A DNA stretch of 64,000 bases, taken from positions 37,633-101,632 of the forward strand of contig CAMCYR010000002.1 in the NCBI GenBank assembly GCA_945885475.1. The letters are read 5' to 3'. Origin of the DNA: Chitinophaga pinensis. GTDB lineage: Bacteria; Bacteroidota; Bacteroidia; 2-12-FULL-35-15. The notes under the pieces were generated by a model. That model had not been told where the DNA came from and searched no databases. It was given only the letters and a program-made list of their open reading frames with translations. Both the position numbers and the translations under genes were made by a program. Every line of letters begins with the position of its first letter. Position 1 is the first letter of the stretch. Below, one piece after another: positions 9,810 to 63,800 of the stretch.

Positions 9810-12800
9810 ATGAAAAAAACAGTTCTTTTTTCTTTATGCGTTGTGTTTACATTTTTCGTAAATAAAACATCTTCACAAACATGGGTAGAGCAAATGCAAG
9901 ATCCGAATGTCAATTTTTATGATGTGCAGAAAGCATTTAATGATTACTATAAAAACTACGAACCCAAATTTAGAGAAACAGAAAAGCTAAAAAAAGCTTC
10001 TGCAATAGCAACTTCGACTATAACCCCTTTTATCCCGGTAAAAGGTGCAGCTACAACTTCTTCAATAGCCGCTGCTAGCGTTCCAGAAAAAGTAAAAATG
10101 GCTGGTGGCTGGAAGGCTTATAAACGCTGGGAAAATTATATGGAGCAGCGTTTATACCCATCCGGAGATCGTTCTGTTATGGTGAACGCATGGAACGAAT
10201 ATTTAGATAATTTTTATGCTGGTTCCGCTTCGGGAATGAGAGCTTCTGGTCCGGGAGCTCCTGCAACAATGGCCGCTAATTGGTCCCTTGTAGGACCAAC
10301 AACAACTATCCCAACCGGCGGAGGTGGTGCAGGAAGGGTGAATTTTGTGAGATTTGATCCCGCTGCTTCTACAACAATTTATGTTGGTTCTCCTGGTGGC
10401 GGACTTTGGAAAAGCACCAATAGCGGCAGTACCTGGTCTACCGGAACCGACAACTTAGCGGTAATCGGATGTACCGATCTAGCGATTCATCCTACAAATT
10501 CATTAATTCAATATCTTGCAACGGGCGATGGAGAAGCTCAGGATACCTATTCAATCGGTGTATTAAAAACGACAAACGGTGGAACATCGTGGAGCCCCTC
10601 CGGATTAACCTGGTTGGTAACCCAAGGCAGAACAATCAGTCGCTTATTAATTAATCCGCAAAATCCGAATACTCTTTTTGCTGCAACCAGCAATGGTGTT
10701 TATAGAACCCGTAATGCTGGAGCTGCATGGACTCAGATTGCTACTGCGATTGCGAATGTAAAAGATATCGAATTTAAGCCTGGCGATACGACAACCGTAT
10801 ACGCTTGTTCTACAACCTTATTTTATAGATCTACAAATGCAGGAACAACTTTCGCAACAACGTCTACGGGTTTGCCTGCTGCTGCTTCCGTTTCGCGATT
10901 AGCAATTGGTGTTTCGGCTGCAAACGCTACTTATGTTTATGTGTTAGCTGCTAATGCAGCCTTCGGATATCAAGGAATATACCGCTCTGCGAATAGTGGA
11001 GCAACATTTACAGCGCGGTCTACAAGCCCTAATTTATTGGGTTACAATAGTACCGGTTCCGATGCTGGTGGACAGGGTTGGTACGATCTTTCAATTGCAG
11101 TTTCTCCTTTAAATGCTGAGCAAGTAATTGTTGGTGGTGTTAATATATGGCGATCAATTAATGGCGGAACGAGCTGGACAATCAATGCGCACTGGACAGG
11201 TACTGGAGCGCCATACGTGCATGCAGACATTCACGCCTTAGAATTTTTACCGGGAAGTGGTACGACCTATTTTTCTGGTAATGATGGCGGATTATTCAGA
11301 ACAACAACCAGCGGAACATCTTGGAGCGACCTGAGTAACGGCTTGCAAATTTCTCAGATATACCGAATCGGTCTTTCTACTACGAATCAAAATCTTTTAT
11401 TGTCAGGTTGGCAAGATAACGGAACAAACAGGTGGAGCGGAACAGCAACGTGGAGCCGACCTTTGGGTGGTGACGGAATGGAGTGTATTGTCGATTGGTC
11501 GAATGCAAATGTTCAATACGGAGAACTCTATTATGGTGATATCAACAAGACCACAACCGGTGGAAATTTAACAACGAATATCGTTGCTTCCGGTGGTACA
11601 GGTGTAAATGCAGATGGTGATTGGGTTACTCCTTTCATTGAAGCGCCTAGTAACGCTGCTACATTGTTTGTTGGGAAAGCTCAGGTATATAAAAGTACAA
11701 ACAGTGGGGGAACTTGGGCGCAAGTCGGTACAATTTCAGGGGGTACCGGAAGTGTAATTGCACTGGCAAATGCCGCTTCAAATATTAATTATATCTATGC
11801 TGCTAAAAGAGATAAGTTTTACGCGTGTACAACTGGTGCTGCTTTTACAGATAGAACAGCTGGTTTGCCGACGGCTTCCGCTGCCATCTCCTACATTGCT
11901 GTTGATCCTTTAAATGCAAACAGAGTTTGGGTTACTTTTTCCGGATACTCTGCTGCAAATAAAGTATGGTACTCTGCGAATGCGGGTGTAACCTGGAGCA
12001 ACTATTCAACAGGATTGCCCAACTTACCTGCGAACTGTATCGTTTACCAAGGAAGTTCAACAAATGATCCGCTTTATGTTGGAACAGATGTTGGCGTTTA
12101 TTACCGCGATAATACTGCAGGTTCATGGGTTGCTTATAATACCGGATTGCCAAATGTTTCTGTCCGTGAATTAGAAATTCAATACACTGCTCTTAAATTA
12201 CGAGCAGCAACTTTTGGTCGTGCTGTTTGGCAATCCGATTTAGCATCTCCTGGCACTTCCCCTCCTGTAGCTGATTTTTCAGCAAACAGAACAACTATTT
12301 GTGTTGGTGATTGCATTAACTTTACAGATCTTTCCAGTGGTTCTGCTACTTCCTGGGCTTGGACGTTTACAGGTGCATCTACTACTTCTTCAACCTTACA
12401 AAATCCTACAGGAATTTGTTACAATACCCCCGGTACCTATCAGGTTTCTATGATCGCAACCAATACAAACGGTAACAATACGATGACAAAAACAGCCTAT
12501 ATAACTGTTTCTTCTCCAATTGCTTTGCCTTTGGTTGAAGGGTTTCAAGGTGCAGCATTTGTTCCTTCGGGTTGGTATTTGAGTAACCCGGATTTAGATA
12601 TGACCTGGGCACAATCAACAACGGTTGGTGGTTTCTCAACAAGTACAAATAGTGCTGCAATGGATAACTTAACTCCTGCAACCTCTATTGCAGGTTCTGT
12701 TGACGAGTTGTGGACTCCCAAATATAATTTTACAGGTGTTTCTTCTGCTACCATGACATTCGATGTTGCTTATTGTAGGTACAATGCAACCTACTTCGAT

Positions 12801-15800
12801 TCACTGATTGTTTTTGTTTCTACGAATTGTGGTTCAACGTGGTCGAGGGTTTATTCTAAAGGAGGAACAGGATTAGCGACTGCAGCAGATAATGCAACTA
12901 CCGTTTTTGTTCCTACCGCAGCGCAATGGAGAACAGAAACAGTGAGCATGACTCCTTATGCCGGACAAGCAAATGTGATGGTGAAATTCCAAAATAAATC
13001 TGGATGGGGACAAATTCTTTATTTAGATAATATCAATATCACCGGTATAGGCGCCCCGGTTGCCGGTGTTACAATTGCATCAAATGATGCTGATAATGTG
13101 ATTTGTGCAGGAACATCTGTTACCTTCACGGCAACTCCTACAAACGGAGGAACAACTCCTACGTATCAATGGCAGGTTAATGGTGTGAATGTTGGTGGGG
13201 CAACCGCTTCAACTTTTACGACATCAACTATAACTACAGGTCAAATTGTAACATGTAACATGACTTCAAGTCTGGCGGGTGTTGTGGGAAGTCCGGCTCC
13301 TTCCGGCCCGATAACAATGACTGTTAATCCATTGCCAGCTACCCCAACACCAGGTAGTAATTCCCCGGTTTGTGTTGGTTCAACAATTAATTTAACGTCG
13401 TTTACTGTTGCTGGTGCAACCTACAGCTGGACTGGTCCTGGAGCTTTTTCTTCTTCATTGGAGGATCCAACCCGTCCTGGCGCTTCATTATCAATGGCAG
13501 GAACATACAGTTTAACTGTAACTGTCGGTGGATGTGCCAGCTTGGTGGGAACCACTGTCTTAGTTGTAAACGCATTGCCAACAACACCTACTGCTGGAAG
13601 CAATTCTCCTGTTTGTGTAGGAAGTATAATCAACTTAACCTCAAATACTGTTGCCGGTGCAACCTACAGTTGGATCGGACCAGGTGCATTTTCTTCCGCG
13701 CTAGAAGATCCAAGCCGTCCATCTGCTTCAACAGCAATGGCTGGAACATATAGTTTAACAGTAACCGTTGCTGGCTGTTCAAGTGCTGTTGCAACAACAG
13801 TGGTTGCAGTAAATACAGCACCAGCAACACCAACAGTAGGAAGCAGCACTCCAGATTGTGTTGGACAAACTATGAGTTTAACATCAAATACAATAGCAGG
13901 TGCAACGTATAGTTGGACAGGACCAGCAGCATTTAATTCTGCATTAGAAGATCCAACTCGTCCTTCAGCAACTCTTGCAATGGCAGGAACCTACAGCTTA
14001 ACAGTTACAGTAGCTGGTTGTACAAGTGCTATGGCAACAACAACGGTTGTTGTGAATGCATTGCCAGCAACTCCAGTTCCAAGTATAAACGCAAGTACAA
14101 CTCCTGCTGCAATTTGTGCAGGTGGTACAATTACTTTAACTACTCCTAATTTGGGTGCTGGTTTCACTTATAGCTGGACTGGCCCCAATAGTTATGCTGC
14201 CGCTGTAAGAAATCCTCCAGCTTTAACAAGTGTTACAACAGTAATGGGTGGAACGTATTCATTGACGGTTACCAATGGTGGTTGTTCAAGTTTAGCGGGA
14301 ACGGTTACTATTGTAGTGAATCCGACTCCTGCAGCACCAACTGCCGGAAGTAACTCTCCTGTATGTACAGGCTCTTCAATTTTATTGACTTCAAATACCG
14401 TTGCGGGTGCTACTTACGCTTGGACCGGTCCAAGTACTTTCACCTCAGCATTAGAAGACCCTTCTCGTCCTACTTCAACATTAGCAATGGCTGGAACATA
14501 CAGCGTAACCGTTACTGTGGCAGGATGTACAAGTCCTGCAGGAACAGTAGTTGTTGCAGTTAGTGGTAGTGTTGTTCCTACAAATGCAATTACAGCAAGT
14601 CCAAGTGGTGCTATTTGTGCTGGAACTTCCGTTACGCTCACGGCAAGTGCTGGTGGAGGTGGAACAACTCCAACATATCAATGGCAAGTAAATGGAAGTA
14701 ATGTTGGAACAGGCGGAACAACATACACTTCAAGTGCGTTAACAAGCGGACAAATTGTAACATGTATATTAACGTCAAGCTCTTCTTGTGCTGTTCCAAC
14801 TACAGCAACGTCCAATACAATTACAATGCTTGTAAATCCAGTTGTAGTGCCTTCGGTAAGTGTTGCGGCTAGTCCATCAGGAGCAATTTGTAATGGAACA
14901 TCAGTGGCGTTTACTGCAACCCCAACAAATGGCGGAACAACTCCAACATACCAATGGCAAGTAAATGGAAGCAACGTAGGAACAGGTGGAACAGCATATT
15001 CAAGTTCAGCCCTTGCAAGTGGAGATGTTGTAACTTGTACAATGACATCCAATGCAACATGTCCATCTACAGCTACCGCAACATCAAGCGGAATAACAAT
15101 AACAGTGAATCCAACGATAACTCCAGCGGTAAGTGTTGTTGCAAGTCCTGCTGGTGCAATTTGTTCAGGAACATCTGTATTGTTTACAGCAACCCCAACA
15201 AATGGTGGAACAACTCCAACGTATCAATGGCAATTGAATGGAAGTAACGTAGGAACAGGTGGAACAACGTATACAAGTGCCTCACTTGTAAATGCTGATA
15301 TTGTAACTTGTACTGTCACATCCAATGCAATATGTGCTAGTTCGCTTACAGGAACAAGTACAGGCATTACAATGGTTGTAAATCCAACCCCTGCAACGCC
15401 AACCATTTCTGTGTTAGGATCAATATTAACATCTAGTTCTCCAACAGGAAATCAATGGTATTTAAATGGAATATCTATAGCAGGTGCGACTAACCAAAAC
15501 TATACGTTTACAGCAAATGGAACGTATACCGTTATTGTAACAGTAGTTCCTTGTTCATCGGCCGAATCAGCTCCTGAAGTGATTACTACTACTGGAATAG
15601 AAGATGCAAGCAATCAATATGGATTAAACATTTATCCAAATCCAAACGATGGAAACTTCAACATCTTATTCAATGCAAATGTTGTTGCAGATTACACCAT
15701 TGAATTGACAAATGCTTTAGGTCAATTGATTCACAAAGAAGAGTTGAAAAACTATTCTGGTGCGTATAGAAAACCATTTAGTGTTGTTGATTACGGAAAA

Positions 15801-43440: not shown

Positions 43441-43566
43441 CAAAAAAAGCTGATAGATACCCTTCTTTTACTTAGAATTGTGCGTATTCAATGAAGCAGC
43501 AAGTTTTTTCTAGAAGTATAAAACAACCCTAAAGAGGAAATTTCAACTATAACATACAAAAAACAA

Positions 43567-43652
43567 AAAACCTTACAACATAATAGCTGTAAGGTTTCTT
43601 TTTGCTCCCTCTGCTGGACTTGAACCAGCGACCCTCTGATTAACAGTCAGAT
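43567..43652 (-). repeat. att-like direct repeat, copy 1. It is a 48-nt copy of the 3' half of tRNA-Asn (43605-43652) plus an adjacent terminator hairpin (43571-43595).
   Basis: On the minus strand CTGACTGTTAATCAGAGGGTCGCTGGTTCAAGTCCAGCAGAGGGAGCA is identical to the anticodon-stem-to-3'-end of the intact tRNA at 51319-51392. There is no 5' half, D-arm or acceptor partner. The hairpin is CCTTACA...TGTAAGG. Confidence 0.75.
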
Positions 43653-43768: not shown

Positions 43769-44209
43769 TTACAGCATGCCTTCATCAGCAAATGAAAAAT
43801 ACCCTTCATCAGTTATAATCAAATGATCTATTAAGACAATATCCATTATTTTACCTGCTTCTTTTAGACTTTTGGTGATTTTCTGGTCTGCTTCACTAGG
43901 CTTTAAATTACCACTTGGATGGTTGTGGCAAAGAATGATTGAACTGGCATTTGATTTTAAAGCTGTCTGAAATACAACTTTAGTATCTACTATTGTTCCT
44001 GATGTCCCTCCAAGTGATATTTTACTATATCCCAACACCCTATTTGCTCGATTTAAGAGCATTAAATACATTTCTTCAATATACTGAAGCCTATCACTCC
44101 AAATTGCTCTAAACTGCGTTTCTGCATCTCTAGAAGTAACAACTTTTGGTAGTTCAGAGAGCTTATTTTTGTACTGATAATTGATTGATATTTCACATAA
44201 TGTTTCCAT
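43769..44209 (-). CDS. RadC-like JAB/MPN domain protein
   Basis: ...IILCHNHPSGNLKPSEADQKITKSLKEAG..MDIVLIDHLII carries the H.H...(S/D) JAMM motif. Confidence 0.8.
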   Translation of the reverse strand: METLCEISINYQYKNKLSELPKVVTSRDAETQFRAIWSDRLQYIEEMYLMLLNRANRVLGYSKISLGGTSGTIVDTKVVFQTALKSNASSIILCHNHPSGNLKPSEADQKITKSLKEAGKIMDIVLIDHLIITDEGYFSFADEGML

Positions 44210-44640: not shown

Positions 44641-44979
44641 CTAACTAATCGCCCCAGAATAGACAGCTTCTTCCACATTAGTACTTTCACCAATGAATTG
44701 ATAATTGTGGCTTAATGTGATTGTTTCATTTGTTCCTGGTACTTGATATGAATAATCTTCACATTCAATTTTTACTATTTTACCAGGGAACTGTGTGTTG
44801 ATTAAAGCCTTACATGAAGCTTCATTTAAAGTTGTGGTTATTGTTGCCTTGCGGGCATGAGCATAGAATTTTCCGGTATTCACTGCTCTAATTAATTCCA
44901 CATCGCCTTGAAGTTCTAGTACATGAAATACTTCTTCTTTGGCATTTTTTCTTTTACTAAATCCAATTACTGTTACCAT
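44641..44979 (-). CDS. Hypothetical protein (112 aa), the first gene of the RadC-like operon on the island
   Basis: Codon usage is good. No motif was recognised. Confidence 0.5.
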   Translation of the reverse strand: MVTVIGFSKRKNAKEEVFHVLELQGDVELIRAVNTGKFYAHARKATITTTLNEASCKALINTQFPGKIVKIECEDYSYQVPGTNETITLSHNYQFIGESTNVEEAVYSGAIS

Positions 44980-45432
44980 TGTTATAGGGTTTTTATATAA
45001 TATAAATAGGAAAGCGTTTCTTCCCTAATGGTAAGTGGGGGAGGTGTCAGGAGTAAGCTCAGGGGTTAGTATGCAAAAAAAAAAAATTAATAACCCATTG
45101 GCAAAGCCTAAATATAATAGATTAATGAGGGTTAATGAGAGGGTTAAAGGATGTGTTGCTGCAAATTAATGGGAGGGGATTAGTAATCTTGTATAAAAAA
45201 TAGAAATTTTATATCCTCAGTAGATTGGGAACTGCAAACCTACCTTTTAAACGGGAGGATGTTCTTTGAAATCAAAATTTTTAGGCTAGATATCACTATG
45301 TCTGCATTTTAGATTAAATATGCCTAGTGTAGAGAGATTTCAACCTAAATTGGCAATTAAATAAAAAGAGGAAAAACGTAAGTCTTTCCTCTTTTTAAGT
45401 AAAATTGTCTTTTAAAAAAATTTCTGCACTTG

Positions 45433-45909
45433 TTATTTTGCTATAATTATACAGTTTAACATTTCTTTATAATAGCGTATTTGAGGAACTTCACAATCAT
45501 AAATATACAAACGAAAGCTAGCTATTAGGCTTTCTTTTAACATTTTAACATCCTCATTACTTAATACAATCATTGATGAATAATTGAATCCTTGATCTCC
45601 AACACTAACATTTATTTTTGCATCTGGCCTAGAAATTTTTTTCCCATTATTAAGCAATATAATAACTCCTTTTTCAATAGAAATAGTCTCACCTTTCGTT
45701 TCAAGCCTAATCATTATTAACGTATCCTTGCCTAATATTTTTTTATAAAAAACTACCGGATGCTCTTGCAAATTATCTTCAACAAATGAAGGTGACATAA
45801 ATTTTGTTTCTCCTGTAAATTTATCAACCTCTTTGGTTATGTCTGAACATTGTGAAAACAAGTTAGATGTTACCGATAAAATAAAAAATATTGATAATAA
45901 TTTTTTCAT
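45433..45909 (-). CDS. Hypothetical lipoprotein
   Basis: The signal peptide plus lipobox is MKKLLSIFFILSVTSNLFSQC. Confidence 0.55.
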   Translation of the reverse strand: MKKLLSIFFILSVTSNLFSQCSDITKEVDKFTGETKFMSPSFVEDNLQEHPVVFYKKILGKDTLIMIRLETKGETISIEKGVIILLNNGKKISRPDAKINVSVGDQGFNYSSMIVLSNEDVKMLKESLIASFRLYIYDCEVPQIRYYKEMLNCIIIAK

Positions 45910-45981: not shown

Positions 45982-46797
45982 CTAAAATCTTATTCCGACA
46001 TTAATACCGAGTCTAAATAGGAGGTTGTCATAATATGGAAAAAAGTCACTAATACCGATATCTATAGCACAAAAAATGGGTTTAATAGGGTGATAAACTA
46101 ATCCTCCATAAATGACTCCAGTACCCCAAGATGATTTATCAGTATAGGTTTTATTGTAAACTAAATCTTTAAATTCAAATTCAAATGAACCATATTCAAT
46201 TCCAATTGCTCCAAAACCTCTTAATTTACCTTCTCCAGTTGGATAAAATTTTAAATGGGCTCCAACAGCGAATCCTTTTGTTACGGTAGTGACATATCTA
46301 TTATTATAACTAGGAATATAGCAAAAATATTGAAATCTAGTTGCGCTAGATAATAAATTGGAGGAAGAATACCCTAAGTACAAAGGAATCTTGATAGCCA
46401 ATTTTTGCCTTGCAAAAAAACGTTCATAAGAAATATTGAAATCTTTAAAAAGAAAGGGAACGATATTAATAGAAAATATATTTTTCCCATAAACATTTAC
46501 AAATTTAACTTTTTCCTTAATCTGTGGTTCAGAATTAGTTGGAGGTATAATTACATCATTTTTCTTTGCAATTACTTCAGTCTCACCATTTTTATAGATA
46601 ATCATTAAAACATTGCTTTTTGATATTGTATATAAAGGACCTTCAATATTAGAGAATTTTTTATACTTAATTTCTGTAGTGTTTATTTCTATTATTTTAG
46701 TCAAAACTTCAGTACCATCTTTCAAATAAATTTTATCTTGAGAGTAGATTAAAGAAGTTAATAGGAGGGAAGTTATTAATAGGAGTGCTTTTTTCAT
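45982..46797 (-). CDS. Secreted protein with an N-terminal ~70-aa conserved module and a C-terminal putative outer-membrane beta-barrel-like half (paralog A)
   Basis: It has a signal peptide. The N-terminal half is ~95% identical at DNA level to the next gene. The C-terminal half has alternating hydrophobic residues and ends ...GINVGIRF, an aromatic terminus like an OMP beta-signal. Confidence 0.65.
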   Translation of the reverse strand: MKKALLLITSLLLTSLIYSQDKIYLKDGTEVLTKIIEINTTEIKYKKFSNIEGPLYTISKSNVLMIIYKNGETEVIAKKNDVIIPPTNSEPQIKEKVKFVNVYGKNIFSINIVPFLFKDFNISYERFFARQKLAIKIPLYLGYSSSNLLSSATRFQYFCYIPSYNNRYVTTVTKGFAVGAHLKFYPTGEGKLRGFGAIGIEYGSFEFEFKDLVYNKTYTDKSSWGTGVIYGGLVYHPIKPIFCAIDIGISDFFPYYDNLLFRLGINVGIRF

Positions 46798-46827
46798 ATA
46801 TATTAATTATTAAATACAATCTTGATT

Positions 46828-47724
46828 CTAATAACGTACACCTAAACTAATACCAATTCTAGTTAATGTGTTACCAGAATTTTTAAATTTGCCGGGAAAC
46901 GGAGCCGTGGATTTACTAAAACCAATATCAAAAGAGCAAGATAAAAGCTTATTTGGTTGATAGGATAATCCTCCATAGATAATCCCAGAAATAATGGACA
47001 AATATTTATTATAAGAAATATCTGAGAAGTATTGGCAATAATAACCAGTACAGGTTTCATTAATCTGCAATTCTAATTTAGCATATTCAACTCCAATTGC
47101 TCCAAAAGCTCTTAATTTACCTTCACCAGTTGGATAATATTTTAAATGCGCTCCAATTCCCCATCCTTTTATTATTTTCTGAGTTATATATATTCTATTT
47201 TTCATATTATCCGAATAATAATCATCATTGACTGAATAGTATTGAAATCTATTATCGTTAGACAAAAAATTGGGAGAAGAATAATCTAAATAAAAAGGAA
47301 TTTTAATAGCCAATTTTTGCTTTGCAAAAAAACGTTCATAAGAAATATTGAAATCTTTAAAAAGAAAGGGAACGATATTAATAGAAAATATATTTTTCCC
47401 ATAAACATTTACAAATTTAACTTTTTCCTTAATTTGTTTTTCCTCAACTTCTGGTTCAGAATTAGTTGGAGGTATAATTACATCATTTTTCTTTGCAATT
47501 ACTTCAGTGTCACCATTTTTATATATAATCATTAAAACATTGCTTTTTGATATTGTATATAAAGGACCTTCAATATTAGAGAATTTTTTATACTTAATTT
47601 CTGTAGTGTTTATTTCTATTATTTTAGTCAAAACTTCTGTACCATCTTTAAAATAAATTTTATCTTGAGAGTAGATTAAAGAAGTTAACAGGAGGGAAGT
47701 TATTAATAGCAGTATTTTTTTCAT
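46828..47724 (-). CDS. Paralog B of the above. The N-terminal module is the same and the C-terminal half has diverged.
   Basis: N-terminal 120 aa are near-identical to paralog A (DNA 46380-46800 ≈ 47290-47727). The C-terminus ends ...GISLGVRY. Confidence 0.65.
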   Translation of the reverse strand: MKKILLLITSLLLTSLIYSQDKIYFKDGTEVLTKIIEINTTEIKYKKFSNIEGPLYTISKSNVLMIIYKNGDTEVIAKKNDVIIPPTNSEPEVEEKQIKEKVKFVNVYGKNIFSINIVPFLFKDFNISYERFFAKQKLAIKIPFYLDYSSPNFLSNDNRFQYYSVNDDYYSDNMKNRIYITQKIIKGWGIGAHLKYYPTGEGKLRAFGAIGVEYAKLELQINETCTGYYCQYFSDISYNKYLSIISGIIYGGLSYQPNKLLSCSFDIGFSKSTAPFPGKFKNSGNTLTRIGISLGVRY

Positions 47725-47729
47725 ATATA

Positions 47730-48335
47730 TTAATTTCGAACCAATAAATAATAAGTAAAAACATTAACCGCAATACCAATACCAAAACCACCCCAGACGC
47801 GCCCCCATTTCTTTTGCTTCATTTTATGTTTGTATCCACTGAGATAATCTGGATTTTTAATTAAATTTGAATCAGGGTTTGTTTGTTTTATTGCACCAGC
47901 TGTTGGTTTACACAAACCAATTATTAATCCAGTAACAATACCAGCTGGAGAAAATATAATTGTAGGCACAAAAGTGCCCCAAAATGGTTTATAGCTTGTA
48001 TATTTAATTCTAGCATCTTCTTCCCCTAATCTCATCATTTCAGCAGATGACTTTCCAATAGTATTTTCGTTTATACTGTTGTTTTCATTGGCCTTTTTTA
48101 CTTCAGCAAAAACATCTTTATCACCATTTTCATATATAATCATCACTATTTCACTTATAGAAACAACTATTGTAGGGCCATCTTGGTAGTTATATTTTTT
48201 ATATTTAATTTCAGCGGAACCCACTTCTGTTACCTTTGCATCAATATAGTCACCACTATACAAGTATATCTTATCTTGAGAGAATGAATTAAATATTGAT
48301 AGAAAAAAATAGGTGATAAATAATGTTTTTTTCAT
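47730..48335 (-). CDS. Secreted protein with a related N-terminal DKIYL...EIKYKK...IIYENG module (paralog C) and a C-terminal membrane segment
   Basis: Signal peptide MKKTLFITYFFLSIFNSFSQ is followed by the ~70-aa module shared with paralogs A and B. The tracked ORF starts 20 codons earlier, at 48395. Confidence 0.55.
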   Translation of the reverse strand: MKKTLFITYFFLSIFNSFSQDKIYLYSGDYIDAKVTEVGSAEIKYKKYNYQDGPTIVVSISEIVMIIYENGDKDVFAEVKKANENNSINENTIGKSSAEMMRLGEEDARIKYTSYKPFWGTFVPTIIFSPAGIVTGLIIGLCKPTAGAIKQTNPDSNLIKNPDYLSGYKHKMKQKKWGRVWGGFGIGIAVNVFTYYLLVRN

Positions 48336-48498
48336 AGATTGCTTTAGTGTTGAAAAATATTTTATTAATCCAGCAAAATCAGATTTTGTGGCCATGACTG
48401 AGCAGTAGTAAACACGTTAAATAATAAAATTATTAAATGTTTTTTGTTTATCAATAATATTTAATTGTAATCAGTTTTATCTTCAGTTTATGAGTCAA

Positions 48499-50493
48499 TT
48501 ACTCTTTCACAAACTTTTCTTTACCAATTACACTTCCTTTAGTATCTACTAATTGAATAAAATATATTCCACTAGGTAATGAACTTAGATTTAGTAGTGT
48601 TGATTTTTCTTTGGTAAACACAACCTGACCTAACATATTTATAATCTGTATACTGCTATAATTTAAACTAGTATTTATTGTCAGAGTCGAATTTGTTGGG
48701 TTAGGATAAACAGTAAATGATGCAGTATTACTTGCTGCATTTATTCCGGTGCAAAGATTTACAACCATTGTTATTTGAGCAGTATTTGCACACGCATTTA
48801 TATCTGTATACGTATACGTGATAATGTGTGTGCCTGCAGCAGCAATAGAAGGAGAGAAAGTACTACCCACAATACCTGCACCAGTCCATGTTCCTCCTAA
48901 AGGCAATGCTATTAAACTAACCGCAGAAGAAGAAATACATACATTGGTATCTGCAGCTGCTACACTTAATGAAGGCAAGGAGTTAACAGTTAAGTTTGTT
49001 GTTACAGTGCTATCACATCCATTGAACGCTGTGAGAATATCAGTATAAGTACCAAAGGTTGTGTAGGTGCTTGTTCCTACCTGATAATTTTCGCCTACAC
49101 AAATAGATGGAGATTGTATTCCCGTTATTGCAGCAGGTTCTGTTATAGTTCCAGTAGTTGAAGTGCTACAACCGTTAGCATCTGTAACAGGATAAGCATA
49201 CGTTCCTGCACTTGCAGTATATGTTCCTGTTCCAGTATAAGGAGCTGTACCATCCATGGCATTAACCGTTATTGTTGATGAACCACCATTACAAAAGATA
49301 GCTGTTGATGAAGATGTTGCCATTAGAGCATTGGGCTGAGTAATAACAAAACTTTGTTCGGCAGTACAACTATTTGCATCTGTAACAGAACAAGTATAAC
49401 TACCTGCAGAAAGTGCTGATGCAGTAGCGCCTGTTCCTCCACTTGGTGACCATGAATAAGTATAACCCGGTGTTCCACCAGCTGCTGCAATTGTAGCAGA
49501 ACCATTACTTAATCCATTACAACTTACATTGGTTTGTGCGCTTGCAGTTGTAGTAGGAGGAAGAGTTACATTTACTAAAGAAGTAGTAGTAGAAGTACAA
49601 CCTAATCCATCCGTACCTGTAATAGTATATGTAGTTGTAGTGCTCGGTGTTACTACTACAGAATTTCCTGATAAACTACCTGGCATCCATGTGTATGAAG
49701 ATGCACCACTTGCAGTAAGGGTGGTTGGTAAGCCTGAACAAATAGTTGAGGAACTTGCATTCACTGTTATACTAGAAGCTCCTGATTGGTATAGTGCATT
49801 AATTTCACATGGGGTTAAAGCTCTGTTCCAGATGCCAATATCATCTATTGTTCCGTCAACAGTGTTATATGAATTAGATCCATATGTTCCAAATCTTAAA
49901 TTAAAGTTTGATGAAACAAGTTGCGAAGTGGTAGGGAAAGAATTGGTTAAAACTCCATTTAAATAAATTCTGCACATTGACGCAGGGCCTCCATTATAGT
50001 CATAAGTTAAAACTGCATTATTCCATTGATTTAGAGATGTTAATGTATTTGTTTGAAAGGCACTCGTGTTATCATAATAAAAGTATAAACCAGTATTATT
50101 TCCAGCAAATAAAAAATGATTTTGACTTGATTGGTCTGATTTATTAATGAAATGATTATAGCCACAACATGATGACGGATCATTGTAGCTTTGGATATTG
50201 TACCAAATGGATAATGTCAATTCAGTTATACTATCTAATACTGCATTATTCATAATATCAATTGACTGTGCAGCTGAGCGGTTGAATTGGTAAGCAGAAT
50301 TTGGATTACTAAAGCGGTCTGTTGTTAAAATTGGACCATTCACAACCCCATTATTCCCATTACCGCTGCTATCAATAGCATTGCCATTAAACGGCCACCA
50401 ACCAACTAAGCCAGCTGATGGAACATAACTTGGTACTTGTGAAAAAGCATTTATGCTAAATACTAAACTTAAAATTAGTAGTAGTTTTTTCAT
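48499..50493 (-). CDS. T9SS cargo protein. It has an N-terminal concanavalin-A-like (LamG) lectin domain, SprB-type Ig-like repeats, and a Por type-A C-terminal sorting domain.
   Basis: A signal peptide is present. ...LTPCEINALYQSG marks the end of a LamG-like fold. Repeats such as NVSCNGLSNGSATIAAAGGTPGYTYSWSPSG follow. The C-terminus reads FTVYPNPTNSTLTIN...GIYFIQLVDTKG... Confidence 0.8.
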   Translation of the reverse strand: MKKLLLILSLVFSINAFSQVPSYVPSAGLVGWWPFNGNAIDSSGNGNNGVVNGPILTTDRFSNPNSAYQFNRSAAQSIDIMNNAVLDSITELTLSIWYNIQSYNDPSSCCGYNHFINKSDQSSQNHFLFAGNNTGLYFYYDNTSAFQTNTLTSLNQWNNAVLTYDYNGGPASMCRIYLNGVLTNSFPTTSQLVSSNFNLRFGTYGSNSYNTVDGTIDDIGIWNRALTPCEINALYQSGASSITVNASSSTICSGLPTTLTASGASSYTWMPGSLSGNSVVVTPSTTTTYTITGTDGLGCTSTTTSLVNVTLPPTTTASAQTNVSCNGLSNGSATIAAAGGTPGYTYSWSPSGGTGATASALSAGSYTCSVTDANSCTAEQSFVITQPNALMATSSSTAIFCNGGSSTITVNAMDGTAPYTGTGTYTASAGTYAYPVTDANGCSTSTTGTITEPAAITGIQSPSICVGENYQVGTSTYTTFGTYTDILTAFNGCDSTVTTNLTVNSLPSLSVAAADTNVCISSSAVSLIALPLGGTWTGAGIVGSTFSPSIAAAGTHIITYTYTDINACANTAQITMVVNLCTGINAASNTASFTVYPNPTNSTLTINTSLNYSSIQIINMLGQVVFTKEKSTLLNLSSLPSGIYFIQLVDTKGSVIGKEKFVKE

Positions 50494-50900
50494 AGGGTTT
50501 TGGTTTTAAGTAAAATTGTTTTGTTCAGAAGATACAAGTTGCTGCATACCAATAGATATGAAACCTTAATGTTTTTTAATAAAGAAAATATTGTGGATTA
50601 TGATAGGAGAGTATATAATCAATACAAATGTAAACTATTTTGTATAAAGTGCTAATTTTAAATAACCACAGTATCTCTAGGGTTTTTTAGTTGATTGATT
50701 TTAGCTTTAAACCAATTAGCAGAGGCATTTTATTCATTACCTTGAACAAAGCAGTTTTTAAAACAGTTAGGAGAAGCAATAACTAAGCACAGATTAAAAC
50801 TGTAGCTTCTCCTAAATCATTTGCATGTAATTTGCATGTGGAGGGTCATTTTCCTACCTCAAAAGCCATTTCTGACCTTAAGGGTTTAAAAAACAAAAAA

Positions 50901-51013
50901 CCTTACAACTTAATAGCTGTAAGGTTTCTTTTGCTCCCTCTGCTGGACTTGAACCAGCGACCCTCTGATTAATCCCGCACGTGCGGGACTCTAACCAGCT
51001 GAGCTAATTTCCC
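50901..51013 (-). repeat. att-like direct repeat, copy 2. It is a terminator hairpin (50901-50925) plus a tRNA-Asn-derived pseudo-tRNA (50934-51013).
   Basis: The 3' 39 nt (50934-50972) and the D-arm (50990-51008) are identical to tRNA-Asn. The acceptor 5' strand and the anticodon stem are replaced (GGGAAAT... and CCCGCACGTGCGGG), so no cloverleaf can form. Confidence 0.7.
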
Positions 51014-51289
51014 TTCTGGTATAAAGTCTGTATTAATCAACTTTTCGATTAGTTTTTTAGACTTCTGTTTTTTGATAAAACGTTCCAATGTTACTGCCTC
51101 AGATTGTGTTCCTGCTTCAAACACTGCTTTCAATTCCGACGGCTTGTGCTTGGAAGAAAATGTTCCTTCTTCTTTTGTATTATGCTGAATCAATCTCTCT
51201 GCAGGACTTTCACTATACCCGATATATGTAATATCGGATTTCAAACTATGAAGAATGTATATGTAGAACACGGGACTAAGGTAAAACAA
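50969..51289 (-). CDS. Small GIY-YIG domain nuclease-family protein, of the type common next to tRNA genes in Bacteroidota
   Basis: FYIYILHSLKSDITYIGYSESPAERLIQHN is a GIY-YIG motif. The last ~15 codons read through the pseudo-tRNA (…LAQLVRVPHVRD). Confidence 0.65.
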   Translation of the reverse strand: MFYLSPVFYIYILHSLKSDITYIGYSESPAERLIQHNTKEEGTFSSKHKPSELKAVFEAGTQSEAVTLERFIKKQKSKKLIEKLINTDFIPEGKLAQLVRVPHVRD

Positions 51290-51318: not shown

Positions 51319-51392
51319 CTCCCTCTGCTGGACTTGAACCAGCGACCCTCTGATTAACAGTCAGATGCTCTAACCAGCTGAGCTAAGAAGGA
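51319..51392 (-). tRNA. tRNA-Asn (anticodon GTT)
   Basis: On the minus strand the sequence is UCCUUCU-UA-GCUC-AGCUGGUUA-GAGC-A-UCUGA-CUGUUAA-UCAGA-GGGUC-GCUGG-UUCAAGU-CCAGC-AGAGGGA-G. The 7-bp acceptor stem has one G-U pair. The anticodon loop CU-GUU-AA gives GUU. The T-loop is GTTCAAGT. The 5' U is as in E. coli tRNA-Asn. A terminator hairpin lies at 51292-51315. Confidence 0.9.
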
Positions 51393-60879: not shown

Positions 60880-63800
60880 TTAGTTTCCGAAGTTGTTAAA
60901 GTATTGGTTTACTTTTGCTTTAAAGAAGGGCGTTAGTGACGGTGGAACCGTTTTGAGTAATTCCGTTTCTTTTTGTTTCAGCATGTTATACTCTAAAAAT
61001 TCATTAGGGTTACTAAAATTTTCATTTTTCGCTTCATTTGATTGTCTTTTCTCATCCATTTCTCTTTCCTTTTCCGCCTTTTCGCTCTCCAATAGTCGTG
61101 TTAAGATCTCTTCCTGACGCTTGATCGTTTCTTGGCTGATCATCTTATTTACAAGATCGGTCTCCGTTTCTTCCATTTTTTCGGCAATTTTGCTGATGCC
61201 TCCTGCACCCTTTCCATCCTTATTGATCTGATCCGACATCTTTTGTATTTCTTGCCGTAAAGCAGCTTGCTGAGCCGCTAATTTTGCCAATTCCTGACTC
61301 ATTCCTCCGGTTCCCATTCCGGGTTTATTCCCCGGCTTATTGCCACCTTTTTCCATTCCTTCTTTCAGCTTTTTTATTTGCTGATTGATCTGCTCCTGCA
61401 TTTGACGCATGTTTGCCATGGATGGTTTTTGTCCTTTCCCTCCTGGTTTTTTGCAGCTCCCACTTCCTGGTTTTCCTTTTTTAGCCGCATCCTGCATTTG
61501 GCTTAAGGCTTCATTAAGCATCAGCGCCAGATTATTAATGGAGGTCATAGCAAATTGCTGCCGGCTCATTGCTTCCTGTTTGTGGTTTTTTCCATCCACA
61601 GAAGGAGTTTGTGATTCGGTAATTTCTTCCAATGCCTTATCCATATTCATGTTGATAGCGCTGATCTCCTTATTAACGGCAGCAGCAATCTGAGGAACAC
61701 GTTTGCTGAGTGCTAATAAAGTATCTTCGATCATTTTTGAATCATCCTTCAGTTTTTTCTGTTTCTGATTGATTTTTACATACTGAGGATCATTCGGTTT
61801 TGTTTTGGAAAGTTGCCCCATCAAAGCCTCTTGGCCAAATGAAAGCTGGATCAAGTTTTCAAGTAAACCTCTTAGCTTATCTATATCTTCGCCTTCTTGC
61901 TGTTCTTCTTCTTTTTCCTGAGCCTTTTCCATTTGCTGGCTCATCTCTTCTATTTTTTTAGCGGCTTCCTTTTGTGATTTTGCAGCCTCTTTCTTTTTGT
62001 TTTCACTCAGGTTCTCGCTGCTTTTCTGCATTTCTTTTTGAACTTCCTCTTGCTTCTGTTCGCTGTTCTCTAATTTCTTAGGCTCTTCCAGCTCGCTGTT
62101 CTTTTTCTCGAGTTCTTTCAAATCCTTTTTAATATCCTCAAATTTCTTATTCAGCTCATCCTGCTTGATTTTCTGCTCCTTGGCATCCGATTTTTTTTCT
62201 TCCGACTGTTTCGCAAGTTCATCCTGCTTTTTTGCCAGATCATTTAATTTATTGATATTTTCCTGGATTTTTTGTTCAACTTCCAGCTGTTTAAAAATCT
62301 CCAGATTGCGGTCTAATTCTTTCAACAGATCTTTATTATCCAACTTCATTTTCTCTAAGGCTTCTTGTACCTTTTCCTTGTCGAGTTTCTCCAATAGTTT
62401 TTGCATCTCATCGTACTTCTCCTTTAATTCAGGAGTCATCACCTTGTTAAATAGTTCCTCTAGTTGTTTTTGCTTCTCAAGTATTTCCTCGTTTGGTTGT
62501 TTGTATTCATTCTTTTGTTCGTTATTTTGAAGATTTTCGTTTTTTACATTTTCAATCTTTTTTTGAAGTTCTTTTTGTTTTTCGAGCAGTTCCTTCAACT
62601 TCTTTTTCTCTTCCCAGGAAAGATCCTTTTTCTCAGCCACTTTGCGTTGCAAGTCAGCCAATTCTTTTTGAACTTCCTTTGCCTGACGAATACTTTCTTC
62701 CAGATCTTCCTTGATCTTGTTATTGTTCTTATCGGTGTTCTCTTCTAATTCTTTAAGTGTTGCTGCCTTGAAAATCATTTTTTGTGAACGGGAAGATTTG
62801 CTGCCTGTTACACCATCATTGTCCCAAACTTCAAAGTAATATTCAATTTGGTCGCCGGGGGAAACGCCAAGTTCGGTCATATCCCAGTAGTGAAAAAACT
62901 GATCTTGTGTAAGTGAATTGTTAATTGCGACCGGACTGCTATTGGTGGTCATTTTTTTATAACTATCTGTAACAGCAGTATCGTTGTTGCTGATGAAACG
63001 GTAGTTGAAAGAAAGTTTATTGAAGCCATAATCATCTTTTACTTCACCGCGGAAATAAATACGTTTGGTTGAAGTGGAGTCTTTTTTCTCGGCAACAGTT
63101 ATTTGAGGATATGCATCCGGTATAACATTTATAGAATAGGTGACGGAGTCTTTGCTTTTTAAAAATTGATTTGCTGTTGTAATAGAATAGCTTTTGTCGC
63201 GGAAAAGTCGCGTTGAATAACTGAAATTATTTTCGTTCGTGGGAGAAACGGCAAAAGAGGAGTCGTTAAAATTTAGGCGGACTTGTTTCGTATTTTGAGT
63301 ATTAAAATTCCAACTGATTTTTGTTCCGGCCGGAACAACCAGATCTCCTGTATTTTTTAAACGTTCATCTTTTTTGTTGAGGTATTTTGGGAATGAAAGG
63401 GCAATATCAAAATTCAGTAAAACAGGGTTTGGAAGGGCCACCAATTCGTATTCCCTGGATTTAAAGCCATCTGCAGCAAGTTGAAACCGCATGCTTTTTT
63501 GAACATTCTTAAAAACATAATTGAAATTTACGATGCTCTCTTTGTCGAGTTTAAATTCATTTCCGTCAATTTCCAGGTATACATTTTCCGGAACTTCATC
63601 GCCAGTGAGTTGAACCTTCAGTTCGTAATCTTCCTGAGTTACAGTTTTGAGATCCGAATTGGTGATCACAAATTGAAATGGTGCTTCCTTCTCAAAATAT
63701 TCACCGTGTTTTACCAGCCTGTTTGTTCCATCGGTGATGATACTCGGAGCGGCAAACAGGATAACCGTAATGATTAGTATGGGTAAAAGTGCATATTTCA

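Follow-up and report, generated by a model that had tools for sequence, protein, structure and literature searches.

The 64-kb stretch of DNA analyzed here (the window) is part of a metagenomic contig and carries, on the minus strand, genes C, B and A followed by orf158. Gene A (45982–46797, minus strand; 271 residues), an open reading frame confirmed at these coordinates, can be divided into a signal peptide (residues 1–19, predicted cleavage before Q20), an N-terminal module (N-module, residues 20–76), a linker (residues 77–105) and a predicted 8-stranded barrel (residues 106–271) with F as the last residue. Gene B (46828–47724, minus strand; 298 residues) has the same layout and is supported as the tandem paralogue of gene A, as an earlier note on this DNA had proposed. 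It differs from gene A by a 5-residue linker insertion, by longer predicted loops L2, L3 and L4, and by its last residue, Y; the note had read both C-terminal residues correctly.

Gene C (47730–48335, minus strand) encodes 201 residues counted from the ATG at 48335. An alternative upstream ATG at 48395 would give 221 residues; the orthologues of gene C begin at the MKK equivalent to 48335. The N-module is encoded at 46570–46740 in gene A, 47497–47667 in gene B and 48108–48278 in gene C, in each case on the minus strand.

The downstream gene, orf158 (45433–45909, minus strand), has a signal peptide and no family match, and may close the C-B-A transcription unit. A hairpin with a T-run lies near it (45362–45397). 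It is present in locus L018 but not conserved beside orthologous cassettes, being absent in L002, L003 and L008. No tRNA genes were found adjoining these cassettes, and a profile search of all open reading frames of at least 60 residues in the window gave no further barrel copy beyond genes A and B. Judged by the membrane locations that we infer for their products (see below), C, B and A make up a small envelope gene cluster in an uncultivated member of the Bacteroidota.

Predicted barrels and N-module

The C-terminal parts of A and B were modeled with moderate confidence as 8-stranded OmpA/OprF-like barrels (mean pLDDT 66.7), in line with the barrel topology anticipated in the earlier note. 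The two structure models, this one and that of gene C (mean pLDDT 78.7), were built from alignments of only 8 and 6 sequences, and loop L2 has a pLDDT below 50. Because the number of strands is even, both barrel ends would be periplasmic; the N-module of A and B is thus presumably periplasmic and loops L2–L4 probably face outward from what we infer to be outer-membrane barrels. The N-termini of A and B, read from the sequence, show an n-h-c arrangement, MKK-LLLITSLLLTSLIYS and then QD, that agrees with the Q-rule described for signal peptidase I cleavage in Bacteroidetes (PMC5837995).

Gene A ends in LGINVGIRF and gene B in IGISLGVRY, and the ends of their relatives are RF or KF. The eight antiparallel strands (predicted), Sec signal peptide and aromatic C-terminus of the 8-stranded OmpA/OprF/OmpW-like class are all found in A and B, as are, by prediction, the long loops on one side, the short turns on the other and a soluble periplasmic domain on the barrel that are typical of the OmpA/OprF class (PDB 4rlc, 3nb3; NspA, 1p4t; OmpW, 2f1t). 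Unlike that class, A and B match no Pfam barrel or PDB sequence, and identity to the structural hits is 10–13%. Their soluble domain is N-terminal and predicted to be SH3/Sm-like, whereas that of OmpA is the C-terminal OmpA_C peptidoglycan-binding domain.

No Pfam family was found for A or B up to an E-value of 1, both falling below the gathering thresholds of the barrel families (OmpA_membrane, OMP_b-brl, OMP_b-brl_2 and similar), and ten distant relatives gave no barrel family up to 0.1 and two chance-level unrelated matches. PDB and PHROGs sequence searches with A, B and C likewise found no family. The barrel profile matches at least 445 representative clusters (gene B with an E-value of 1.2e-79), and the N-module is present in 113 of the 142 distant relatives listed, which bears out the earlier suggestion that it is a recurrent domain. 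A and B belong to an unnamed Bacteroidota family, predicted from the models to combine an SH3/Sm-like module with an 8-stranded barrel, that has neither a Pfam model nor a solved structure.

The N-module comprises ~57 residues, modeled as a small SH3/Sm-like β-barrel, and is separated from the large barrel by the linker of ~30 residues. The only curated model that recognizes it is NCBIfam NF047433 (Lepto_7_Nterm, the N-terminal domain of LA_0442/LA_0875), a Leptospira family aligned over profile positions 2–62 of 63 with an E-value of 2e-6. Scores of 19–27 bits (A, 27.3; B, 25.6; C, 19.5) do not reach the 43-bit cutoff, and 11 of 34 diverse modules match; the relationship is at best one of remote homology. 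No relevant paper turned up when the literature was searched for the names of the Leptospira domain.

The near-identical 5' tract and its break

Genes A and B are near-identical over a stretch that begins 11 nt before the ATG and ends around codon 135–143, and differ there by 10 substitutions and one 15-nt indel. With the breakpoint placed by maximum chi-square, the homogenized tract spans 46394–46808 in the A copy and 47306–47735 in the B copy (both minus strand; the latter also repeat families D1/D2); the open reading frames and the stretches given in the earlier note (46380–46800 and 47290–47727) were essentially right. The diverged 3' part covers 45985–46393 in A (minus strand; predicted loop L2 through strand 8) and 46831–47305 in B (minus strand). 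The near-identical part had been described as the signal peptide plus the module. It contains both, but it runs on through the linker and as far as the third predicted strand of the barrel.

Identity along the length of the two genes is not uniform and breaks sharply, with differences at 10 of 404 aligned coding bases before the break and at 120 of 397 after it (maximum chi-square 113, reached in 0 of 2000 permutations), so that the strong divergence reported for the 3' halves holds. Third codon positions taken alone give the same picture (7/134 before and 50/133 after; 0/2000 permutations). The 3' halves have diverged by about 30% at the nucleotide level, with indels in or beside predicted loops L2, L3 and L4, and the 3' flanks past the two stop codons can still be aligned, with roughly the same identity as the diverged half. 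Since the break falls between predicted strand 3 and loop L2, inside the predicted barrel, it is not a domain border, and the boundary between conserved and variable parts drawn in the earlier note does not coincide with the border between module and barrel.

Synonymous divergence (dS) between A and B is 0.10 before the break and 0.65 after it, 6.5-fold lower in the 5' tract, while nonsynonymous divergence (dN) is 0.022 and 0.338, a ratio of 15. Nine orthologue comparisons (six of A or B with an orthologue and three between orthologues) show that the N-terminal half is the better conserved one, with a half-to-half dN ratio of 1.8–2.3 in all nine; dS in these comparisons is high in both halves alike, near saturation. 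The signal peptides of A and B are 95% identical and the linkers 100%, whereas in the orthologues signal peptide and linker are only 28–47% identical. The jump in dS at the break and the identity of the least constrained parts together point to homogenizing recombination of the 5' part. Because synonymous divergence jumps there while constraint among orthologues changes only about two-fold, the boundary is best read as a recombination breakpoint and not as a selection boundary.

The two-fold dN ratio among orthologues and the placement of indels in or beside predicted surface loops would also be expected if no recombination had occurred and the boundary arose only because the N-terminal half is under strong purifying selection and the surface-exposed C-terminal half under diversifying selection. 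We regard this as very improbable: third positions break like the rest, the unconstrained signal peptide and linker are shared by A and B, the break lies inside the barrel, and dN/dS in the diverged half stays below 1 both on the predicted outer side (0.58) and in the remainder (0.41). These pairwise values (0.41–0.58) give no support for positive selection, for which they are a weak test. The proposal that the sharp boundary is a sign of diversifying selection is not supported by these values and is contradicted by the 6.5-fold drop in dS.

A second conversion tract was considered at a 93%-identical island (the codons for HLKxYPTGEGKLRxFGAIG) and rejected. The island has 2 synonymous differences against ~3 roughly expected at the rate of the 3' half, encodes a conserved predicted periplasmic turn, and is written in other codons in the orthologues. 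The L012 tandem pair of distant relatives is evenly diverged along its length, and the sharp boundary is not a general trait of the barrel family.

Origin of the tract and strain variation

Gene conversion following an older tandem duplication is the most likely mechanism, and we consider it probable overall that the A-B pair of the C-B-A envelope cluster arose through tandem duplication and then partial gene conversion of the 5' part. The barrel gene would have been duplicated in tandem together with about 30 nt of 3' flank, at an age corresponding to a dS of about 0.65. Interlocus gene conversion, by homologous recombination, would then have overwritten the first 415–430 nt of one copy with those of the other and reset the divergence of the tract to about 2.5%, leaving the end of the converted tract as the sharp boundary. 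Both an abrupt, statistically supported change in identity and a synonymous drop beyond that due to constraint, the marks of interlocus conversion, are seen here. With a tract dS of ~0.1, the conversion would not have been very recent, or there would have been several events.

A second sample (L018), colinear with B(3')-A-orf158, confirms the tandem arrangement of B and A and allows the comparison of alleles across strains that the earlier note had called for. Between the two strains, the 3' half of B has a dS of 0.233 and a dN of 0.087, whereas dS is 0.013 for the 3' half of A and 0.011 for orf158; the variable half of B is thus ~20 times more diverged than its flanks. Replacements in this half are enriched on the predicted extracellular side (20/89 versus 6/63, Fisher p 0.048). 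With a dS of the B 3' half far above the ~1% background and replacements concentrated on the side predicted to face outward, it is plausible that alleles are exchanged at B: the variable half may have been exchanged or kept as old alleles. Such strong divergence between strains suggests that selection has a target at the surface, in the outer half of B. The earlier note had offered cassette exchange or diversifying selection; the first finds some backing in the alleles of B, while a boundary set by selection does not.

The same strain divergence in B (0.233 against 0.013 and 0.011) and the outer-side enrichment of replacements would also fit a recent whole-gene duplication after which one 3' half was replaced by a divergent imported allele, the young part being the original state and the old-looking part foreign. 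Such an origin for the A-B difference is unlikely. The strains differ at B far less than A and B differ from each other (dS 0.65), and the divergence of A and B does not end at the stop codon but continues into the 3' flank, in keeping with the whole unit having been duplicated long ago. In the barrel half, moreover, A and B differ by a dN of 0.34 compared with 0.52–0.69 to the orthologues, which on present sequences, with very thin sampling of relatives, makes them each other's closest relatives.

The source of the contig is metagenomic, and in three other samples contigs stop within the repeated tract or precisely where it ends, as would be seen if two strain variants of one gene had been stitched in tandem or the contig were chimeric. 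We find an assembly artefact of this kind hardly credible. The 3' halves differ by 30% and by several indels, much more than strains would vary; both copies have flanks of their own and an unbroken open reading frame; and L018 spans B(3')-intergenic-A-orf158 in an independent assembly. The two copies should be correctly phased, as the longest exact run they have in common is 113 nt, below the k = 141 that the contig name implies. In L018 the A allele agrees with B at most of the positions that tell the two genes apart, the 15-nt indel among them, and the gene at the B position in L015 mixes A and B states. Either pattern may be polymorphism shared by the paralogues, or may have been produced by short-read assemblers that switched paths or collapsed the repeat. 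JGI metagenome contigs searched with the barrel profile and an exact 32-mer from the tract yielded nothing, and a scan of GTDB genomes gave four distant MAG loci only.

A and B do not look like programmed antigenic-variation cassettes: there are just two barrel copies, both complete open reading frames, and the search of open reading frames of at least 60 residues in the window gave none that could be a silent donor. A diversity-generating retroelement was rejected: none of the genes called within ~10 kb encodes a reverse transcriptase, there is no template-like extra repeat, and the substitutions between alleles involve all bases. Switching by an invertible promoter or shufflon was rejected too, with no suitable inverted repeats and no recombinase seen in the genes called within ~10 kb.

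Paralogous babA, babB and babC of Helicobacter pylori form chimeras by RecA-dependent gene conversion (PMC5483490). They resemble A and B in being paralogous outer-membrane genes with near-identical and divergent stretches and mosaics from intragenomic recombination. The bab genes, however, lie at dispersed loci, vary in the middle while being homologous at the 5' as well as the 3' end, and are linked to phase variation through CT repeats, while A and B are in tandem and homogenized in the 5' part only; no simple-sequence repeat was seen at A and B. In prokaryotes at large, duplicated genes reportedly evolve in concert, gene conversion keeping paralogues more alike than orthologues; A and B differ in that only part of the gene was homogenized and the rest diverged freely. 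The conversion process itself is familiar; the protein family is uncharacterized. On this reading A and B are a clean and well-dated case in which outer-membrane protein genes lying in tandem, here in an uncultivated lineage of Bacteroidota, have undergone partial gene conversion. They also caution that a sharp step from conserved to variable sequence does not have to coincide with the border of a domain or of a function.

Gene C and its pairing with the barrel genes

Gene C encodes a signal peptide, N-module, linker and two long hydrophobic helices with a K/R-rich loop between them. It lacks a barrel and is predicted, with the help of its structure model, to be a helical two-pass protein of the inner membrane with the module in the periplasm, not an outer-membrane protein. 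That it holds a distant copy of the N-module was correctly noted: the modules of A and C are 46% identical, and the module is all that C shares with the barrel genes.

The combination of C and a barrel gene is found at six loci, the one in this window and five others (four of them intact), with C orthologues directly upstream of barrel genes in the metagenomic loci L002, L003, L008/L009 and L020. By gene order and predicted location, this is a rare conserved gene pair that puts the same module on an inner- and an outer-membrane protein. We guess, from fold and gene order alone, that the common module of C and the barrels binds a shared periplasmic partner, either peptidoglycan or the partner's module. 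C and the barrels would then link the two membranes through the module, and A and B would be kept alike by conversion in the half that binds the partner while differing in the surface half. The fuller proposal, that the modules of C (inner) and of A and B (outer) pair or bind a common ligand, with conversion maintained for this and the outer alleles kept under phage or predator pressure, is a long shot. Were the modules of C and the barrels to interact, they would represent a new kind of envelope link.

A and B share a near-identical 5' tract

C (47730-48335), B (46828-47724; 298 aa) and A (45982-46797; 271 aa) are three minus-strand ORFs arranged head-to-tail. An alternative ATG at 48395, upstream of C, would add 20 residues; orthologues of C begin at an MKK matching 48335, not at this ATG. 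A and B terminate in RF and RY, respectively.

The almost identical 5' stretch of A and B reported in the earlier note is present at the coordinates claimed. DNA alignment places it at 46394-46808 (A copy) and 47306-47735 (B copy), both on the minus strand, starting 11 nt 5' of the ATG and ending at approximately codon 135-143, with 10 substitutions and one 15-nt indel. The coding sequences differ at 10/404 aligned sites 5' of the break versus 120/397 sites 3' of it (maximum chi-square 113, equalled in 0 of 2000 permutations) and, at third codon positions only, at 7/134 versus 50/133. Since the longest exact run shared by A and B (113 nt) is shorter than the assembly k of 141 implied by the contig name, the contig can be expected to phase A and B correctly.

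The break is located within the predicted barrel, after strand 3 and before loop L2. The identical part comprises the signal peptide, the N-module (a predicted small SH3/Sm-like β-barrel), the linker and three barrel strands. Approximately 30 nt 3' of both stop codons can still be aligned, with an identity close to that of the diverged half. A downstream island around the YPTGEG motif (93% identical between A and B) corresponds to a conserved predicted periplasmic turn and was rejected as a second tract: two synonymous differences were seen versus roughly three expected from the 3'-half rate.

Origin of the boundary

Nei-Gojobori estimates for A versus B are dS 0.10 and dN 0.022 in the 5' part, and dS 0.65 and dN 0.338 in the 3' part. 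Pairwise dN/dS is 0.58 for the predicted outer side and 0.41 for the rest. Differential selection alone was rejected as the cause of the boundary, as it cannot lower synonymous divergence 6.5-fold. Three orthologues, whose coding DNA came from further metagenomic loci, served for comparison. The dN ratio of the 3' to the 5' part reaches 15 for A/B but only 1.8-2.3 in each of the nine pairs that include an orthologue; in these pairs dS is comparably high in both halves, near saturation. The parts most telling for the history of A and B are those least constrained in orthologues, the signal peptide (95% identical between A and B, 37-47% among orthologues) and the linker (100% versus 28-41%).

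Together with the position of the break inside the barrel and the alignable 3' flanks, these contrasts argue that the entire gene, with a little 3' flank, was duplicated in tandem long ago, and that a later homologous-recombination event homogenised the first 415-430 nt of the copies. The probable cause of the A/B pattern is thus gene conversion following this duplication. We consider the main rival unlikely, namely that the gene was duplicated recently and a foreign 3' half was then imported. The earlier reading of the boundary as cassette exchange or diversifying selection needs correction: with synonymous divergence lowered 6.5-fold in the 5' part, it is better described as a recombination scar.

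Recombination between outer-membrane protein genes also produces chimeras among the Helicobacter bab paralogues (PMC5483490), which A and B resemble in evolutionary behaviour; however, the bab genes occupy dispersed loci and carry phase-variation repeats, and A and B have neither. A profile search of the window ORFs found no silent cassettes, no recombinase or reverse transcriptase was seen among the genes near A, B and C, and no suitable inverted repeats were found.

In sample ERZ28612979, locus L018 is colinear with window positions 47340-44972 (the 3' part of B, the spacer between the two genes, complete A and the downstream gene orf158), which independently confirms the tandem B-A arrangement. 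Between the window and L018, dS and dN are 0.011 and 0.011 for orf158, 0.013 and 0.010 for the A 3' half, 0.131 and 0.012 for the A 5' tract, and 0.233 and 0.087 for the B 3' half. The L018 A 5' tract carries the B-type state at most A/B-distinguishing sites, 15-nt indel included, with repeat collapse or path switching possible; L015 also mixes A and B states, and its contig breaks at the repeated tract. Paralogue-shared polymorphism is a hallmark of ongoing conversion. The mixed states look like such polymorphism, although short-k assembly could also yield them within a repeat, and the start of L018 ~50 nt into the shared tract suggests that it is a short-k assembly. In three other samples (L014, L015 and L019) the contigs carry C and then break off, either within the repeated tract or precisely where it finishes, as expected where assemblers stop at repeats.

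The high divergence of the B 3' half is robust because it lies in unique sequence. Amino-acid replacements in it are enriched on the side predicted to face outward (20/89 versus 6/63; Fisher p 0.048). As dS rises along with dN (ratio 0.37), rapid diversification by point mutation fits this half less well than divergent alleles that were imported or have long persisted.

Predicted folds and envelope topology

The structural part of the earlier note, which proposed outer-membrane barrels, largely stands. The AlphaFold model of A (mean pLDDT 66.7; alignment of 8 sequences) contains a small all-β N-module followed by eight strands. With eight strands both barrel termini are expected to be periplasmic, which would place the module in the periplasm. 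L2, L4 and the tip of the hairpin formed by strands 5 and 6, all long and rich in indels, are probably outward loops; two conserved motifs, YPTGEG and YQPxK, map to predicted periplasmic turns. In the model of C (pLDDT 78.7) the same module leads into an amphipathic helix and then into two hydrophobic helices, the second of them long, with a K/R-rich loop in between; we interpret the helices as an anchor that passes twice through the inner membrane. Q directly follows the predicted signal peptide in every family member, in keeping with the Bacteroidetes Q-rule (PMC5837995).

A and B belong to an uncharacterised family. Pfam searches with A, B and C gave no match, and the sole NCBIfam match, of the N-module to NF047433, was sub-threshold (19-27 bits versus a 43-bit cutoff). 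In the PDB, a designed SH3 protein was the sole match to a profile of 34 modules (E 0.003). A and B are alike in predicted fold to the OmpA/OprF class but fail every sequence-family test for it. Most likely, A/B display a small periplasmic domain from an OmpA-like anchor in the outer membrane, and C displays the same domain from an anchor in the inner membrane. Our working guess, from fold, predicted topology and gene order, is that a common periplasmic ligand or module-module contact links the envelope layers.

Relatives and genomic setting

Close relatives are very rare: word-indexed searches across 5.8 billion proteins recovered approximately eight barrel relatives and six C-type clusters. 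When the barrel profile was run with HMMER against the full set of 1.84 billion representatives, 445 proteins matched at E <= 0.001. Among the matches listed, 113/142 distant relatives also have the N-module, so module plus small barrel appears to be the usual architecture of a broader unnamed family; in some proteins the module precedes unrelated C-terminal parts. The organisms named for relatives are uncultivated Bacteroidota MAGs.

In L002/L011, L003, L008/L009, L020 and the window, the barrel gene is preceded by a C-type gene at a distance of 4-11 nt, which points to a C-barrel pair as the basic unit, with one extra barrel copy in the window. L012 (5707-7217), from a distant Bacteroidota MAG, has two tandem module-barrel genes overlapping by 4 nt and evenly diverged along their length. 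Tandem duplication therefore recurs in the family without homogenisation, and the sharp boundary is particular to the A/B locus. In L020 (717-1463) the C-type gene is followed by a barrel orthologue that a stop interrupts at the loop L2 position, close to the A/B breakpoint; it resumes in a separate downstream ORF, reflecting either a pseudogene or an assembly error. ParE/YoeB-type toxin genes adjoin orthologous cassettes elsewhere, and in L021 a T9SS-tail protein gene is directly upstream of the barrel gene.

An intact tRNA-Asn(GTT) (51319-51392) and two tRNA-Asn-derived copies, at 43558-43652 (region extending to 43664) and 50888-50981, all lie on the minus strand. The two copies are spaced 7330 nt apart and have ~95 nt in common, the tRNA 3' half plus a hairpin/T-run. 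They bracket, at the far end, a gene for a RadC-like JAB domain (43769-44209) and an ORF of 112 aa that matches no family (44641-44979), and further several small ORFs, orf158, A, B, C and a T9SS cargo gene. GC is 27-32% in this segment versus mostly 35-41% around it. The segment resembles an islet that integrated at a tRNA gene, but no integrase was seen. Between the intact tRNA and a tRNA-like copy, in which TCCCGCACGTGCGGGA replaces the anticodon arm, lies a GIY-YIG ORF (50969-51289; whole region 50905-51289). In L019 (1274-1942) the hairpin and then an HTH_3 gene come straight after the tRNA and the GIY-YIG ORF is missing, so the GIY-YIG segment resembles a strain-specific insertion by which the tRNA was duplicated.

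The T9SS cargo gene (48499-50493), upstream of C, encodes Laminin_G_3, SprB repeat and Por_Secre_tail domains. Its product has 664 aa versus 330 aa in L019 (1943-2935), and only the two ends align (83% and 97%). Orf158 (45433-45909, minus; region 45362-45909) has no family match; its signal peptide is followed by Cys (LFSQ-C), and it may be a lipoprotein. It adjoins A in L018, is absent beside orthologous cassettes, and is followed 3' by a strong 16-bp hairpin and T-run. Elsewhere in the window, GC rises to 0.41-0.45 at 10-15 kb (10001-15000) versus 0.31-0.37 on either side, and at 61-63 kb (61001-63000) the AT skew is as strong as -0.40 to -0.42.
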